5,880 bases of DNA from Escherichia coli (GTDB taxonomy: Bacteria; Pseudomonadota; Gammaproteobacteria; Enterobacterales; Enterobacteriaceae): assembly GCF_030013595.1 (NCBI RefSeq), contig NZ_CP122773.1. The stretch is one strand, 5' to 3'. The notes below the pieces were generated by a model that did no database searches, was not told where the DNA came from, and worked only from the letters and a program-made list of their open reading frames with translations. The position numbers and the translations under genes were made by a program. Shown piece after piece: positions 1,560 to 5,503 of the stretch; within the stretch, counting starts at the first letter, position 1, and each line of letters opens with the position of its first letter.

Positions 1560-1730
1560 TGAAAAATGGCAGGTTCATTGGATTAAGGCGGACTAATGTG
1601 CTCTGTGCCATCTGGTTGCATAGGTATTCATACGGTTAAAATTTATCAGGCGCGATCGCGGCAGTTTTTCGGGTGGTTTGTTGCTATTTTTACCTGTCTG
1701 CTGCCGTGATCGCGCTGAACGCGTTTTAGC
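1560..1730. promoter_or_regulatory. cer-like accessory sequences (ArgR/PepA binding region) of the multimer-resolution site
   Basis: ARG-box-like TGCATAGGTATTCATA at 1617-1632, about 100 bp from the Xer core as in ColE1 cer; the stretch matches my recollection of the ColE1 cer accessory sequence almost base for base; contains inverted repeat 1649-1664 / 1701-1715. Confidence 0.65.
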
Positions 1731-1759
1731 GGTACGTACAAACTGTTGTTATGTTAAAT
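1731..1759 (+). other. XerC/XerD core recombination site (cer-like, variant central region)
   Basis: GGTACGTACAA (1731-1741; 10/11 to cer XerC arm GGTGCGTACAA), 7-bp central ACTGTTG (1742-1748), TTATGTTAAAT (1749-1759; identical to the dif XerD arm, 10/11 to cer TTATGGTAAAT). Confidence 0.7.
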
Positions 1760-1781
1760 ACTGATGGGCTTTCCTGATTGA

Positions 1782-2696
1782 TTATCCGAAGATCAATCCC
1801 CAAACACTTTTAGCTACAGAAACAATGGCTTTCTTGGCGACTTTAGCCACTGACGCTATTGGTTTAGGTAGTACGGTGTCTATTATATCATCAATAGCTC
1901 TATCTACGGTGTCTGCGAACCCGTCCTTTGCCGTTTCTACAATTTCTTTTGTTTTTATTTCGTCTTTTACTTGATGCACCACTCCGCTCTGTGCTTCCTT
2001 TGGGAGCGATCTTACTATTGCCTCCACTAACCTTGAAATGTTATAACCTTCATTCGCAGATACAGATATAACGGGATGTTTGGTAAAACCGAATCGTTCT
2101 ATTAAGTATTCTTCCTTTTTTCTAATATTTATTTGTTGTGAGGGTGATGGTTGGTGTTTTTCTTCATCCCATTCGCGGAATGGCTCAATCTTGTCGACTT
2201 GGTTTAAAACAAACAACACTTTTTCATCACCACCAACTGGTTTTAAAACATTTTTATAAAAGTGCTCATCAGCTGAAAATGCTCGATCATCACCTTTAAC
2301 AACCCAAAGCACCAGATCTAATTCTGGGAGAAGATTTTTATACAACTCTTCATATTCTATATCTTTAGCTTCATTTTCACCTACACCTGGTATATCTATT
2401 ATTTTAATTGTTCTATCACCAAATGAAATTATTAATTCCTGAACCTTTCTCGTGCATGCTTCTACATCACTCACTGCACATACATTACCTTTAAAGATAG
2501 AATTACATAGGCTGGATTTACCAGCGCCGGTTTTACCCATAATCCCTATTACTGGTTCGTAATTAATAACATTTCTAATTTTGTTATAGACAGACTTGCG
2601 AATCTCTTTAGGTAGAACATCCACAGCTTCTTTGATTAATTTTATACCTTGCGTATTGTTTTCCATAGTTACTATTTTCCTCATTTTGTTGTTCAT
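1782..2696 (-). CDS. P-loop GTPase, YfjP/YeeP/YkfA-like (50S ribosome-binding GTPase / MMR_HSR1-type domain)
   Basis: Walker A GKTGAGKS (nt 2514-2537, minus), G3 DIPGVGE, G4-like NQVDK; stretch VIGIMGKTGAGKSSLCN...DxPGVGE...LDLVLW resembles E. coli prophage GTPases YfjP/YkfA as I recall them. Start is ambiguous: ATG at 2696 lies 5 nt after the upstream gene stop; ATG at 2666 has an AGGAA 9 nt upstream; the track's ATG at 2753 gives a K/R-rich extension overlapping the upstream gene and has no SD. Confidence 0.8.
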   Translation of the reverse strand: MNNKMRKIVTMENNTQGIKLIKEAVDVLPKEIRKSVYNKIRNVINYEPVIGIMGKTGAGKSSLCNSIFKGNVCAVSDVEACTRKVQELIISFGDRTIKIIDIPGVGENEAKDIEYEELYKNLLPELDLVLWVVKGDDRAFSADEHFYKNVLKPVGGDEKVLFVLNQVDKIEPFREWDEEKHQPSPSQQINIRKKEEYLIERFGFTKHPVISVSANEGYNISRLVEAIVRSLPKEAQSGVVHQVKDEIKTKEIVETAKDGFADTVDRAIDDIIDTVLPKPIASVAKVAKKAIVSVAKSVWGLIFG

Positions 2697-2701
2697 ATGA
2701 A

Positions 2702-3136
2702 TTAACGGAAGCTTGTTTTTCTTTCTTCTTTTTCTTCCCCGCATACAGAACATTTGTAATGGCGATAGGTATCAGAACTCCCACTAAGATACCAATTGTG
2801 TCTTTTACCATGAACTCGCTCTGTAAAACATCTCACGCATCTTTCTTTCACATTGCAATAATCATCGACTGCAATTTCAACAAATCTTTCATGCCTTTCG
2901 CCTTCTTGTTCAGCGCCACAGTCGATACACTTTTTTACAGTTGTGCACTTGAAATCGTATTTATAATTTTCCTCTCCGTATTTATGCTGTTCTTTTTGTA
3001 TAGTGCGATTGCAGTCAGGGCATAGTTTAGAATATTTACAAGTCTCACCATCAATAAGCTTATAGTTTCCTCCGTGTATACCTACCCCACACTTAGCCTT
3101 GATTGCTGCATTTTTTATGCTATCCCAAAAGCCCAT
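2702..3136 (-). CDS. Cysteine-rich putative zinc-binding protein (three tandem C-x5-C-x2-C...H modules plus terminal CxxC)
   Basis: 144-aa ORF; SD GGGAG 8 nt upstream of ATG at 3136; 12 Cys; C33-x5-C39-x2-C42, C64-x5-C70-x2-C73, C94-x5-C100-x2-C103 with periodicity ~30 aa, each followed by His, and C129-x2-C132; AT-rich like neighbours. Confidence 0.75.
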   Translation of the reverse strand: MGFWDSIKNAAIKAKCGVGIHGGNYKLIDGETCKYSKLCPDCNRTIQKEQHKYGEENYKYDFKCTTVKKCIDCGAEQEGERHERFVEIAVDDYCNVKERCVRCFTERVHGKRHNWYLSGSSDTYRHYKCSVCGEEKEERKTSFR

Positions 3137-3181
3137 GGAAAAATCTCCCTACGATTAGTTGATATAAGTTGAACAATTCAT

Positions 3182-3225
3182 CGACATGATTATACACGTA
3201 TAGTGTGTGGATATATAAAAATGAG
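3182..3225 (-). promoter_or_regulatory. Candidate sigma70 promoter for the zinc-ribbon/GTPase operon
   Basis: Perfect TATAAT on the minus strand (complement of 3189-3194) about 46 nt upstream of the 3136 start codon; -35 is weak (TATATA-like); AT-rich intergenic region. Confidence 0.3.
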
Positions 3226-3363
3226 TATGGATTTATGCTCTGTATAATGTTGTTGTTATATTAAATATAGAGCTGAAAAAGTGGGGGCACTGGATAAACT
3301 TCGTGTTTTTCCCGCAAAGATAGTATTGGAAAGTCATTGTCTAATTCATCCAAGATAAATATT

Positions 3364-4176
3364 TTACGAATTTGTGAGTTTGCTTGAGATTTTTATATAT
3401 TCAGCCTTTATTAACTCATTGCCATATTTTTTCTCGAGCCTTTTAACAATGAAATGACCTCGAGCCATATCTTGATAATAGTCGGTAAACATTGTGTTTA
3501 ATGTGGCTCCAGTTAGTGCTCCAATAACGGGAACGACTTGAGCTGCCATTTTTTCCGTAATAACTATACCAAATCTTGTTGCAACTTTTTCTATTAACGA
3601 AGCTAACCATTTTCCTGTTTGTACTGAAGATGCGTTTTTGACAGCAATGTTAGAAATTTCTTTGGATAAATCTTGTACGATCTCGGCAGTCAAACTTCTT
3701 GTTGCATAGTATGCAGTATTAGCTGCATCATCGTCATCAGATGGTCCTCCCAAGGAAAACACCTCTAAGCAGGCCAGTTTGGTATCAATATTATCTAGCT
3801 CAAAACCTTCACTTCTTGCTATGTCAGCAATTGAACGAAGCATAATTGTCGTTGAAACCGGTAACTCAATTGCTAATGCAGAAAAGCCAAAAGCGCCACC
3901 AATGGCTCCAGATACGGCCGCAAAGAATTTATTTGTCTTAGTTGATGCTATTCGGTTAGGTTCATTGTCTAGACTCCATAAGGCTGCATCAGCAGCTTTG
4001 TGGAGAGATTTTTCTACTAGACTATAAATTTGCTCTTCTGCCCCTTTGGGAAGTTTACTCATTAAGTAATCTATTGGGGTTCCAACTAATTGGGTTAATG
4101 TTTCAGTAATTGTATCTTGTTCTAATAATTCTACGGCCCTTTCTAAAGCCCGCAGATCTCCTTCTTCAAGATGCAT
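3364..4176 (-). CDS. Hypothetical protein, possibly EcsC-family-like
   Basis: 270-aa ORF; AAGGA 8 nt upstream of ATG at 4176; Gly/Ala-rich hydrophobic segments (AAVSGAIGGAFGFSALAIELPV, VVPVIGALTGATLNTMF), acidic patch GGPSDDDD; overall impression matches EcsC-family proteins but this is from memory, not a search. Confidence 0.7.
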   Translation of the reverse strand: MHLEEGDLRALERAVELLEQDTITETLTQLVGTPIDYLMSKLPKGAEEQIYSLVEKSLHKAADAALWSLDNEPNRIASTKTNKFFAAVSGAIGGAFGFSALAIELPVSTTIMLRSIADIARSEGFELDNIDTKLACLEVFSLGGPSDDDDAANTAYYATRSLTAEIVQDLSKEISNIAVKNASSVQTGKWLASLIEKVATRFGIVITEKMAAQVVPVIGALTGATLNTMFTDYYQDMARGHFIVKRLEKKYGNELIKAEYIKISSKLTNS

Positions 4177-4329
4177 ATAATGAATCCTTTATGAATCAAT
4201 CGATAGTCTACTTTTGTAAGTGATTCGTCTTGGGAGCTTACCTTGAGCGAGTTCAGTGATTCAATAGGCGAGATGCCGACATCATTGTTGTCTGTGAAGC
4301 AGGAGTGATGAAAAGATCAAAGGATCCTC

Positions 4330-4367: not shown

Positions 4368-4475
4368 AAACAAAAAAACCACCGCTACCAACGGTGGTTT
4401 GTTTGCCGGATCAAGAGCTACCAACTCTTTTTCCGAAGGTAACTGGCTTGGTGGAGCACAGATACCAAATACTGT
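4368..4475 (-). ncRNA. RNA I antisense copy-number control RNA (108 nt)
   Basis: Reverse complement of 4368-4475 reads ACAGTATTTGGTATCTGTGCTCCACCAAGCCAGTTACC...CCACCGTTGGTAGCGGTGGTTTTTTTGTTT, i.e. the canonical three stem-loop RNA I with terminal hairpin plus U-run; differs from pMB1 in loop-proximal bases. Confidence 0.85.
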
Positions 4476-4511: not shown

Positions 4512-5149
4512 GAACTCTTAATATCTCAATCCACCTTGTCCAGTTACCAGTGGCTGCTGCCAGTGGCGCTTTGTCGTGTCTTACCGGGTTGGACTCAAGA
4601 CGATAGTTACCGGATAAGGCGCAGCGGTCGGGCTGAACGGGGGGTTCGTGCACACAGCCCAGCTTGGAGCGAACGACCTACACCGAACTGAGATACCAAC
4701 AGCGTGAGCTATGAGAAAGCGCCACGCTTCCCGAAGGGAGAAAGGCGGACAGGTATCCGGTAATCGGCAGGGTCGGAACAGGAGAGCGCACGAGGGAGCC
4801 ACCAGGGGGAAACGCCTGGTATCTTTAAGTCCTGTCGGGTTTCGCCACCTCTGACTTGAGCGTCAATTTTTGTGATGCTCGTCAGGGGGGCGGAGCCTAT
4901 GGAAAAACGCCAGGGGCGCGGCCTTTTTCCTGGTTTTGCCTTTTTGCTCACATGTTCTTTCCGGCCTTATCCCCTGATTCTGTGGGTAACCGCATTACCG
5001 TCTCTGAGTGAGCTGATACCGCTCGCCGCAGCCGAACGACCGAGCGCAGCGAGTCAGTGAGCGAGGAAGCGGAAGAGCGTAGGCATTTGCATTTTCTCCT
5101 TACGCATCTGTGCGGCATTTCACACCGTCCATGGCGCACTTTTCATACA

Positions 5150-5300
5150 ATCCGCACTGATGTCGCATAGTTAAGCCAGTATACACTCCGCTAGCGCTAC
5201 GTGACTGGTTCAGGGCTTCGCCCCGAAACCCCCTGACGCGCCCTGACGGGCTTGTCTGCTCCCGGCATCCGCTCACAGACAAGCTGTGACCGTCTCCGGG
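5150..5300 (-). other. oriT / bom region (ColE1-type), nic site approx. 5175/5176 on the minus strand
   Basis: Minus strand reads ...GTAGCGCTAGCGGAGTGTATACTGGCTTAACTATGCGACA..., near-identical to the pBR322 bom/nic region as recalled; nic position inferred by alignment, not seen directly. Confidence 0.6.
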
Positions 5301-5311
5301 AGCTGCATGTG

Positions 5312-5503
5312 TCAGTGGTTTTCACCGTCATCCCCGAAGCGTGCGAGGCAGCTGCGGTAAAGCTCATCGGCGTGGTCGTGAAGCGATTCACAGATATCTG
5401 CCTGTTCATCCGCGTCCAGTTCGTTGAGCTTCTCCAGCAGCGTTAATGTCTGGCTTCTGATAAAGCGGGCCATGTTAAGGGCGGTTTTTTCCTGTTTTGT
5501 CAC
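5312..5503 (-). CDS. rop: Rop/Rom RNA I-RNA II pairing modulator (63 aa)
   Basis: GTG start at 5503 preceded by GGAGG 5 nt upstream; protein (M)TKQEKTALNMARFIRSQTLTLLEKLNELDADEQADICESLHDHADELYRSCLARFGDDGENH matches pMB1 Rop except the last residue; the 87-aa track ORF is an upstream in-frame extension. Confidence 0.9.
   Translation of the reverse strand: MTKQEKTALNMARFIRSQTLTLLEKLNELDADEQADICESLHDHADELYRSCLARFGDDGENH

Follow-up and report, generated by a model that had tools for sequence, protein, structure and literature searches.

YkfA/YfjP/YeeP-type GTPases are found in most E. coli genomes and are still uncharacterised; a real partner protein would have helped to explain them. The 5,880-nt stretch of E. 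coli DNA analysed here (the window) carries a GTPase gene of this type directly downstream of a gene for a Cys-rich, zinc-repeat protein, both on the minus strand. Do the two genes form a translationally coupled, functional pair, as the initial annotation proposed, or are they neighbours brought together on one plasmid? We favour, at a probability of roughly two-thirds (0.68), a reading in which the GTPase is translated from its own initiation site and the adjacency is a lineage-specific juxtaposition on a mosaic plasmid, with an mRNA that the two genes probably share.

The plasmid GTPase

The GTPase gene (1782..2666, minus strand) encodes a protein of 294 amino acids (WP_021551692.1) that matches Pfam MMR_HSR1 at 1.2e-16. 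It is 44% identical to K-12 YkfA over residues 3-261 of 294 (88% of the length; tblastn, E 1e-62), which bears out the YfjP/YeeP/YkfA family assignment made at the outset. Its Era-like G domain has an intact P-loop (GxxxxGKS), DxxG motif, and N/TxxD motif; the corresponding stretches, GKTGAGKSS, DIPGVGE, and NQVD, vary little or not at all in alignments A2 and A5. Homologues fall into 4389 clusters, named 'GTPase family protein', the closest named homologue being from Edwardsiella, and the best PDB matches by sequence are EngA and Era. Searches of NCBIfam and PHROGs give no specific family for the cargo proteins of the plasmid, and nothing functional on YfjP, YkfA, or YeeP was found in the literature.

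YkfA (CP4-6), YfjP (CP4-57), and YeeP (CP4-44) of K-12, members of the Era-like TRAFAC group, are full-length homologues of the same length class. They share with the plasmid GTPase the G1/G3/G4 motifs, a C-terminal W..F tail, and carriage on mobile elements. The K-12 genes are integrase-proximal in P4/CP4-type islands with WYL and DUF932 neighbours, whereas the plasmid gene is cargo of a 5.9-kb ColE1-type plasmid and has a zinc-repeat gene upstream, which no sampled homologue has.

The protein is laid out as two N-terminal helices, the G domain, and a C-terminal helical amphipathic tail that ends in W..FG. The best full-length PDB matches of its AF2 model (pLDDT 86.6, pTM 0.88) are immunity-related GTPases (IRGs), with E values of 6e-8 to 1e-6 and TM scores of 0.52-0.56, and Pfam IIGP (PF05049) is assigned to several homologues. 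The predicted fold aligns nearly end to end, G domain and flanking helices included, with IRG/p47 proteins (IIGP1/Irga6, Irgb6, Irgb10) and with GIMAP/Toc34, but the plasmid protein is only 14-18% identical to these, is ~100 residues shorter, and exceeds a TM score of 0.5 barely. The likeness to IRGs is an architectural resemblance, and homology is demonstrated no further than the G domain. The protein may be a self-sufficient GTP-dependent switch that combines an IRG-like architecture with an Era-like G domain, and its amphipathic tail would suit membrane association. PADLOC matches to the protein are at the level of the G domain (LeoBC 8e-12, profile positions 50-237 of 601; LeoA 3e-9). Membership in the Eleos (LeoA/LeoBC dynamin-like) systems was rejected, as only the G domain matches and the protein is 294 residues long and unpaired.

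The zinc-repeat protein

The upstream gene (2702..3136, minus strand; stop codon TAA at 2704-2702) encodes 144 amino acids and is preceded by a Shine-Dalgarno (SD) sequence, AGGGAG (3145..3150, minus strand), with an anti-SD duplex of -8.9 kcal/mol and 7-nt spacing. The protein contains three C-x5-C-x2-C-x8/9-H repeats and a terminal C-x2-C. Fifteen Cys/His residues are invariant in alignment A1, and C103 comes in addition; four zinc ions are predicted. An N-terminal amphipathic helix is followed by an array of beta-hairpins that bear the putative ligands; the AF2 model (pLDDT 89.1) places the helix at residues 4-17 and has 11 strands. The protein matches nothing in Pfam, NCBIfam, PADLOC, or PHROG and nothing in the PDB by sequence or fold, and its AFDB matches are all uncharacterised.

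A profile search yields 390 representative relatives, and the family is small (13 clusters versus 4389 for the GTPase). Long relatives share an N-terminal motif (a helix plus C-x4-H) followed by C-x5-C-x2-C ... H repeats, and distant ones are fused to CHAT (8.6e-30) and EAD7 (2e-15) domains. EADs act in conflict systems (PMC7159879). The protein thus appears to be an array of beta-hairpins, stabilised by zinc, that occurs here on its own, and in the CHAT- and EAD7-containing conflict proteins the same array is presumably the N-terminal, binding or sensing module.

Close homologues of the gene stand by themselves, in the manner of morons, in prophages and in defence islands. For example, it is present on 7 IMG/VR prophage-type contigs, while the INPHARED phages contain no match. 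A Yersinia homologue lies in a defence island, where it adjoins a gene for a JukA-domain protein, and one close homologue stands directly upstream of an McrB-like GTP-dependent defence NTPase.

Are the two genes linked elsewhere?

Gene neighbourhoods were compared for 80 species-representative GTPase loci, out of thousands, and for close relatives of the zinc-repeat protein. The zinc-protein profile matches nothing in the 80 GTPase loci, and no ORF upstream of the GTPase in these loci contains more than two CxxC motifs. The reciprocal search agrees: a YkfA/YfjP/YeeP-family GTPase is absent from all of ~26 zinc-protein loci in prophages, defence islands, and chromosomes, which include Mixta, Yersinia, Leclercia, metagenomes, and the 7 prophage contigs. 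Among 72,556 plasmids, the pair is confined to a single lineage of ~5.9-kb plasmids. At a query coverage of at least 80% it is found in 11 of 5426 complete E. coli genomes, the one listed being this ~5.9-kb plasmid; among the matches listed, E. coli chromosomes have only a distant ykfA/yfjP/yeeP-type GTPase, with the zinc-gene part uncovered. Without the zinc-repeat gene, the GTPase is carried by a 4.8-kb Col156 plasmid, Aeromonas pY47-3, and Acinetobacter pAV1, and its island copies adjoin P4-type integrase or WYL genes.

We therefore have, in 80 GTPase loci, no homologue beside a Cys-rich partner, the very outcome that the initial annotation had named as speaking against its proposal. It had expected the Cys-rich partner to help reveal the role of the GTPase family; as that partner is not conserved, this route falls away. 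The adjacency would be best described as a lineage-specific juxtaposition rather than a conserved two-component system.

It could still be argued that the two proteins make up a real, lineage-restricted two-gene system expressed from one mRNA, in which the hairpin array binds or senses a phage or plasmid target and regulates or localises the GTPase. The genes lie on the same strand, 35 nt apart, with no predicted terminator or internal promoter, and both sit in one module between Xer-like sites (see below). Their shared low GC content and common pair of flanking sites fit acquisition as one unit and would allow a functional link. In CHAT and EAD7 conflict proteins, relatives of the array form the N-terminal module, and the homologues upstream of the McrB-like NTPase and of the JukA-domain protein have conflict-related neighbours. 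The argument is weakened by the lack of a second case in any of the collections above, by the occurrence of each gene alone and intact elsewhere, so that neither requires the other, and by the absence of a PADLOC system match. On balance we hold a functional pair to be unlikely. Its more specific form, in which the Xer-bounded module is a recently assembled two-component conflict system of one ColE1 lineage with a zinc-hairpin sensor controlling an IRG-like GTPase, we hold to be quite unlikely; if it is true, the functions of the YkfA/YfjP/YeeP family and of the zinc-repeat family, which is absent from Pfam, would become approachable for the first time.

A precedent for combining the two kinds of domain comes from DO-GTPases with N-terminal zinc ribbons, which Kaur et al. 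(2020; PMC7159879) describe in conflict systems. As in the present locus, the DO-GTPase/GAP1 systems bring a TRAFAC GTPase and a zinc ribbon together, there in biological-conflict loci (PMC7159879). In those systems, however, ribbon and GTPase are parts of one polypeptide and GAP1 is obligatory, whereas here the zinc array is a separate, multi-repeat protein. Membership was rejected because neither DO-GTPase1 nor DO-GTPase2 is matched (Pfam, down to E = 10) and the window has no GAP1 gene.

The GTPase start codon

The reading frame of the GTPase offers four ATG codons on the minus strand, at 2753, 2696, 2684, and 2666. The initial annotation correctly placed the end of the Cys-rich ORF at 2704-2702, an in-frame ATG (2696) 5 nt beyond it, and a maximal overlap of 52 nt between the two ORFs. 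The longest GTPase ORF begins at 2753. The initial annotation took 2696 as the first plausible start and saw no independent strong SD sequence, and on both points the evidence leads elsewhere. The N-termini of homologues align to the Met at 2666, and when the ORFs of 80 species-representative homologues are extended as far as possible, 54 of them still begin at most 4 codons from the residue aligned to this Met. RefSeq/PGAP also starts the protein at 2666. An SD-like GAGGA (2678..2682, minus strand) lies ~10-11 nt upstream of this codon, with an anti-SD duplex of -6.3 kcal/mol, which places it among the best ~10% of the cargo's 20-nt windows; the energy is moderate, and the spacing is about as long as a functional one can be. 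The other three ATGs have anti-SD duplexes of at least 0 kcal/mol, that is, no SD at all. Because homologue N-termini, the RefSeq annotation, and the only SD match coincide, the GTPase probably starts at ATG 2666.

With this start, the genes would be separated by 35 nt (2667..2701, minus strand) and not by 5, and the GTPase would have an independent ribosome-binding site. The spacer includes the in-frame ATGs 2696 and 2684, and it is identical in four plasmid variants, which makes it uninformative about coding. By our estimate, DNA of 34% GC would readily contain both two further in-frame ATGs in a span of 10 codons and 29 open codons upstream.

Transcription and translational coupling

The only perfect -10 hexamer is TATAAT at 3194-3189 (3189..3194, minus strand), upstream of the zinc-repeat gene. 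It is the candidate -10 element of a predicted promoter for both genes, with a weak -35 element (TATATA) and a 17-nt spacer. It emerged from our own hexamer scan and falls under the threshold of a consensus scanner, which returned nothing on the minus strand. The transcript start predicted from this consensus-level match, ~3182, agrees with the one initially suggested. The hexamer scan detects no -10-like sequence between 3189 and 2667, and no terminator-like hairpin is predicted between the genes. On these grounds it is plausible, if weakly indicated, that the zinc-repeat gene and the GTPase are on one mRNA, which would begin from a promoter near 3190. Of the coupled two-gene operon originally proposed, the single transcription unit thus survives as a computed prediction, and the coupling is set aside in view of the GTPase's own SD sequence and the 35-nt gap.

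It is reasoned that the GTPase would be translated from ATG 2666 by means of its own GAGGA, 35 nt past the upstream stop codon, and that its expression would then be independent of termination-reinitiation. RNA folding across the junction reveals no structure able to sequester GAGGA above shuffled controls (z = 0.18). Obligatory translational coupling is not supported by the sequence; partial coupling could occur if ribosomes that end at 2702 scan 35 nt and reinitiate. The junction resembles those of coupled pairs (overlapping ATGA or TAATG) in that the genes are on the same strand, closely spaced, and probably on one mRNA. It differs in the 35-nt gap to the supported start, in having its own SD sequence, and in being conserved in no homologue.

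Under classical coupling the GTPase would start at 2696 (or 2684), and most of its translation would come from ribosomes arriving directly from termination at 2702. ATG 2696 is indeed in the GTPase frame just past the stop codon, and as neither of these ATGs has an SD sequence, both would depend on upstream translation. A start at 2696 would, however, add 10 residues without counterpart in homologues, most of which cannot encode them, and it would bypass an SD-preceded ATG 30 nt further downstream that RefSeq uses. We regard classical coupling as distinctly improbable and retain independent initiation at 2666.

A probable mosaic cargo, with a module between Xer core-like sites

The GTPase copy is plasmid-borne, as had been supposed: the window is a mobilizable plasmid of the ColE1 type, with MobA/MbeB/MbeD, Rop, and RNAI at 4370-4473 (Rfam), and 8 near-identical plasmid records exist. 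The cargo, ~1760-4300, is AT-rich, with 33-40% GC versus 52-58% in the backbone (GC profile). In addition to the zinc-repeat gene and the GTPase it includes an EcsC-family gene (3364..4176, minus strand; Pfam EcsC 1.8e-31; PADLOC candidate PDC-S29 2.7e-10), and the ORF list of the window contains no further cargo gene.

The 1.5-kb module of the zinc-repeat gene and the GTPase is flanked by two Xer (cer/dif-like) core-like sites in direct orientation. The arm sequences by which we recognised them are what we take to be the XerC and XerD consensus. Site 1 (1731..1759, plus strand) reads GGTACGTACAA / ACTGTTG / TTATGTTAAAT, with good arms and a 7-bp centre. Here the conserved ColE1-type backbone stops and the cargo joins on; ColE1-like plasmids with other cargo align up to ...TTATGTTAAAT and diverge immediately past it. 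The XerD-arm motif occurs twice in the window against 0.23 expected, and the second occurrence belongs to site 2 (3237..3266, plus strand; GCTCTGTATAA / TGTTGTTG / TTATATTAAAT). This site has a XerD arm matching at 10/11 positions, an 8-bp centre, and a degenerate XerC arm (7/11). It is identical to the junction sequence of pACN001-C at 22 of 25 positions, and in three other variants of the plasmid it has the perfect arm TTATGTTAAAT (11/11), one variant having a 3-nt deletion in the central region. Chance was rejected as the origin of a 17-nt direct repeat, D3 (~0.2 expected by our estimate), since alignment to cargo-less plasmids identifies it as a cer-like core.

The architecture of cer and dif sites is 11 + 6-8 + 11 bp (PMC5357621). 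The predicted arrangement, cargo between XerC/XerD-type core sites, has parallels in cer of ColE1 and in the pdif modules of Acinetobacter plasmids (PMC7399989, PMC9947245), and here, as in Xer-bounded modules, backbone homology breaks exactly at the putative site. Two differences are seen: pdif modules typically have inverted site pairs, whereas the two putative sites here are direct repeats, and site 2, unlike those of known Xer modules, has a degenerate XerC arm and varies among plasmid variants.

The EcsC-family gene lies beyond the Xer-like sites that enclose the module and can be parted from the pair; 3.2-kb plasmids carry it, at 91% nucleotide identity, without the other two genes. On the basis of this occurrence, the GC profile, and the Xer-like sites, the cargo would be a mosaic whose three accessory genes are mobile independently of one another.

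That all three genes form one defence-like cassette is highly improbable. In its favour, they share strand and low GC, no terminator is predicted between ecsC and the zinc-repeat gene, EcsC matches PDC-S29, and a preprint (10.1101/2022.09.17.508391) reports fusions of JukA sensors with Ras-like GTPases and Zn-fingers as well as operons that combine them with EcsC-like genes. Against it, EcsC stands alone on the 3.2-kb plasmids, the 227-nt spacer between it and the pair contains both a separate -10 element and an Xer-like site, an EcsC match is present in 0 of 80 GTPase loci and in none of the zinc-protein loci, and the window has no JukA homologue (PADLOC). Membership in Juk (JukA/JukB) was rejected, as none of the three cargo proteins matches the JukA profile in PADLOC; the one protein with similarity to JukA is encoded next to the zinc-protein homologue in Yersinia.

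Implications

The reading of independent initiation and lineage-specific juxtaposition provides a corrected start codon and a ribosome-binding site for the plasmid GTPase. The plasmid would also illustrate how enterobacterial ColE1 plasmids accrete cargo between Xer sites. An uncharacterised zinc-repeat family is recognised that connects prophage morons, defence islands, and CHAT/EAD7 proteins. As for the GTPases themselves, repeated carriage as a single gene on small plasmids and islands, together with the IRG-like architecture, points to a self-contained and possibly membrane-directed role in conflict, whether with phages or with mobile elements, or in maintenance.

Plasmid and cargo

The ORF listing and the sequence identify the window as a ColE1-type mobilizable plasmid with a backbone of mobA (1-1554), mbeB, mbeD, rop and RNAI (4370-4473; Rfam RF00106). 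The block at ~1760-4300 is foreign cargo, because its GC content is 33-40% as against 52-58% for the backbone. All three cargo genes lie on the minus strand: an EcsC family gene (3364-4176; Pfam PF12787, 1.8e-31), a Cys-rich 144-aa ORF (2702-3136), here called the zinc protein, and a GTPase gene running to 1782 from a candidate start at 2666, 2696 or 2753. It is probable, at roughly two chances in three, that the zinc gene and the GTPase gene are co-transcribed but independent neighbours.

Positions 1700-4300 recur at 99.3-100% identity in eight plasmid records (5.88-5.89 kb, plus one 12.9-kb derivative) from E. coli, Salmonella and Klebsiella, whose cargo is annotated as 'GTPase', 'hypothetical protein' and 'EcsC family protein'; the plasmids and these annotations are already public. 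The sole 100%-identical record is the 12.9-kb CP100018.1, a larger derivative of the 5.9-kb plasmid. Segments of rop/mobC are duplicated in it, it carries a transposase of the IS91 family, and it resembles a cointegrate or a rearrangement of the smaller plasmid. Among four plasmid variants, variable positions number 5 of 435 nt in the zinc gene, 1 of 885 nt in the GTPase gene and none in the 35-nt spacer.

The GTPase

The GTPase matches Pfam MMR_HSR1 (1.2e-16). Its best curated matches are the G domains of Der, Era and MnmE, all far under cut-offs, and its PDB matches by sequence are EngA and Era. In a tblastn search of plasmids, part of them chromosome fragments, it is 44% identical to genes annotated ykfA over 88% of the protein (E 1e-62), which bears out its initial placement in the YkfA/YfjP/YeeP family. 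This family comprises 4389 clusters in the protein collection, and no functional literature on it was found; the GTPase is thus another member of a known, uncharacterised family.

AF2 gives a confident model (pLDDT 86.6, pTM 0.88) in which the G domain lies between two N-terminal helices and a set of long C-terminal ones. The hydrophobic, lysine-rich tail has a W and an F invariant family-wide. Over nearly the whole protein, the closest PDB structures are the mammalian immunity-related GTPases IIGP1/Irga6, Irgb6 and Irgb10, together with GM4951 of the same class (E 6e-8 to 1e-6, TM 0.52-0.56), with Era, EngA, GIMAP and Toc34 ranking below them. A Pfam IIGP match is precomputed for several homologues.

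Two variations occur among the homologues. P0091, a 322-aa E. coli protein whose UniRef cluster has 161 Enterobacterales entries, contains an internal tandem duplication of ~32 residues across the P-loop (IGIMGKSGAGKSSLCNALFQGEVTPVSDVHAG twice). Providencia homologues (P0004-P0018; 388-390 aa) have an N-terminal extension of ~94 residues without counterpart elsewhere, and in Providencia alcalifaciens the gene (locus L013, 6001-7167) lies directly upstream of genes for VgrG and a PLD-like T6SS effector.

The zinc protein

The zinc protein has no match in Pfam, NCBIfam, PADLOC or PHROG. A word-based search recovered only 13 clusters, whose alignment holds 15 invariant Cys/His residues: C16, H21, C33, C39, C42, H51, C64, C70, C73, H82, C94, C100, H113, C129 and C132. 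These form three C-x5-C-x2-C-x8/9-H repeats flanked by half-sites, and this ligand set would suffice for as many as four zinc sites. AF2 predicts an N-terminal helix followed by eleven short strands in a hairpin array (pLDDT 89). No PDB entry matches by fold or sequence; in AFDB, the matches come from Campylobacter, Helicobacter and Acinetobacter and are all uncharacterised.

An exhaustive profile search extended this Pfam-less family to 390 representatives. In the long relatives, the N-terminal helix and motif and the C-x5-C-x2-C...H repeats form the N-terminal part. The repeats are followed by a CHAT protease (two proteins, 8.6e-30) or EAD7 (two proteins, 2e-15) domain, or by weaker regions resembling lipocalin and nucleoside deoxyribosyltransferase. 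Both EADs and CHAT typify conflict systems that depend on NTPs (PMC7159879).

Conservation of the pairing

The pairing of the two proteins is not conserved. In a neighbourhood scan of one genome per species, neither the zinc-protein profile nor EcsC matched anything in the 80 GTPase loci, and none of these had an upstream ORF with more than two CxxC motifs. Recurrent neighbours are WYL-domain and DUF932-like proteins, a typical CP4-type island context; in Citrobacter koseri, a P4-type integrase precedes the gene. Other small plasmids carry the GTPase gene as their only cargo or as an independent part of it.

Conversely, the GTPase-family HMM found no match in 21 scanned zinc-protein loci, and the gene lists of the remaining loci contain no GTPase. 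The Mixta calida homologue stands isolated between an MFS transporter and an acetyltransferase/IS. In Yersinia enterocolitica (L008-L011, 6001-9413), the gene lies within a variable defence island flanked, depending on the strain, by Hachiman-type (HamA and helicase), DO-GTPase/GAP1 or SMC-type (SMC_N, MComp1, CTD4) genes; it is 0.3 kb upstream of a 621-aa protein, whose N-terminal domain is JukA-like (5e-50), and of a PDDEXK_4/PDC-S26-like protein. The Leclercia homologue follows a TM2 gene, one on a metagenome contig has a McrB-like AAA_5 protein downstream, and seven IMG/VR prophage-type contigs carry an isolated gene; other homologues are located in small islands. On the IMG/VR contigs (L107-L113), the homologues are 39-61% identical and moron-like, with the gene at ~5001-5440, and on the Pseudomonas-type contigs a holin-like gene comes next.

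The initial annotation had offered the Cys-rich partner as a handle on the GTPase family. Across the loci sampled, GTPase homologues do not occur beside such a partner, and the idea that the zinc protein is the GTPase's functional partner is ruled out by genomic context. A true functional pair specific to this lineage is improbable: the full pair is present in 11 of 5426 complete E. coli genomes (at least 80% query coverage), and among the matches listed the one case is this ~5.9-kb plasmid.

The gene junction

The stop codon of the zinc gene is TAA (2704-2702); 5 nt past it comes an ATG (2696), and the longest GTPase ORF, from 2753, would overlap the zinc gene by 52 nt, all as initially described. 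There are four in-frame ATG candidates (2753, 2696, 2684 and 2666), and three independent lines of evidence pick 2666. Firstly, when 22 homologues with 42-76% identity to the ORF in the window are aligned, most N-termini start at the residue matching Met 2666, and upstream extensions, where present, lack conservation. Secondly, 54 of the 80 homologues that represent species cannot begin further out than 4 codons from this position, even if their ORFs are taken at maximum length. Thirdly, GAGGA at 2682-2678 pairs with the 16S 3' end at -6.3 kcal/mol ahead of ATG 2666, whereas 2753, 2696 and 2684 have no Shine-Dalgarno match (score >= 0). RefSeq also places the start at 2666. The GTPase gene therefore follows after a 35-nt gap and has its own ribosome-binding site, contrary to the earlier view that it lacked an independent strong one. 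Folding of the junction RNA is no stronger than that of shuffled controls (z = 0.18), thus giving no sign of a Shine-Dalgarno-sequestering structure opened by upstream translation. Reinitiation at 2696, to which the nearby stop codon lends some appeal, is accordingly quite unlikely.

The proposed two-gene operon is plausible; its coupled expression is not upheld. No terminator-like hairpin was found between the genes. For the minus strand a consensus scanner reported no promoter-like site. A laxer scan found one perfect TATAAT at 3194-3189, upstream of the zinc gene and with a weak -35, and no -10-like hexamer between 3189 and 2667. Co-transcription from the predicted site at ~3182 is plausible on these grounds.

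Xer-like sites and proposed assembly of the cargo

A 17-nt direct repeat is part of two directly oriented Xer (cer/dif-like) core-like sites, called with the XerC and XerD consensus arms: site 1 at 1731-1759 (GGTACGTACAA-ACTGTTG-TTATGTTAAAT) and site 2 at 3237-3266 (GCTCTGTATAA-TGTTGTTG-TTATATTAAAT). The XerD-arm motif occurs in the window only at these sites (0.23 expected; two occurrences are reached in 4 of 200 shuffles). The conserved backbone of ColE1-like plasmids whose cargo is unrelated can be aligned to the window up to exactly site 1 and diverges beyond it; site 2 shares 22 of 25 positions with the pACN001-C junction. At site 2 the arm is perfect in three other plasmid variants, and one variant has a 3-nt deletion in the centre of this site. 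The 11 + 6-8 + 11 core architecture is documented (PMC5357621).

The zinc gene and the GTPase gene form one 1.5-kb module, because both sit between these sites, and ecsC lies outside it, which suggests that cargo was added stepwise at the plasmid's cer site. A three-gene cassette, despite the common strand, is very improbable, as ecsC also occurs without the pair on 3.2-kb plasmids at 91% nucleotide identity (L003, 1746-2585). The EcsC-family gene matches the PADLOC candidate PDC-S29 (2.7e-10), and a preprint on Juk reports that EcsC-like genes share operons with jukA (10.1101/2022.09.17.508391). Convergent with ecsC on the 3.2-kb plasmid is an unannotated ORF for a small zinc ribbon of ~60 aa (L003, 1478-1660, plus strand) that has two CxxC pairs.

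Functional implications

As independent neighbours, the two genes would be read from a single mRNA starting at ~3182. The GTPase would initiate on its own at 2666, with ribosomes that scan on after termination adding a share at most. It may be a self-sufficient GTP switch, possibly membrane-associated, and the zinc array, which stands alone here, may be a module that conflict systems use for binding or sensing. By sharing one module the two genes now move as a unit, but this does not imply a joint function. The zinc-repeat family and the Xer-bounded module, by-products of this analysis, are of greater interest.
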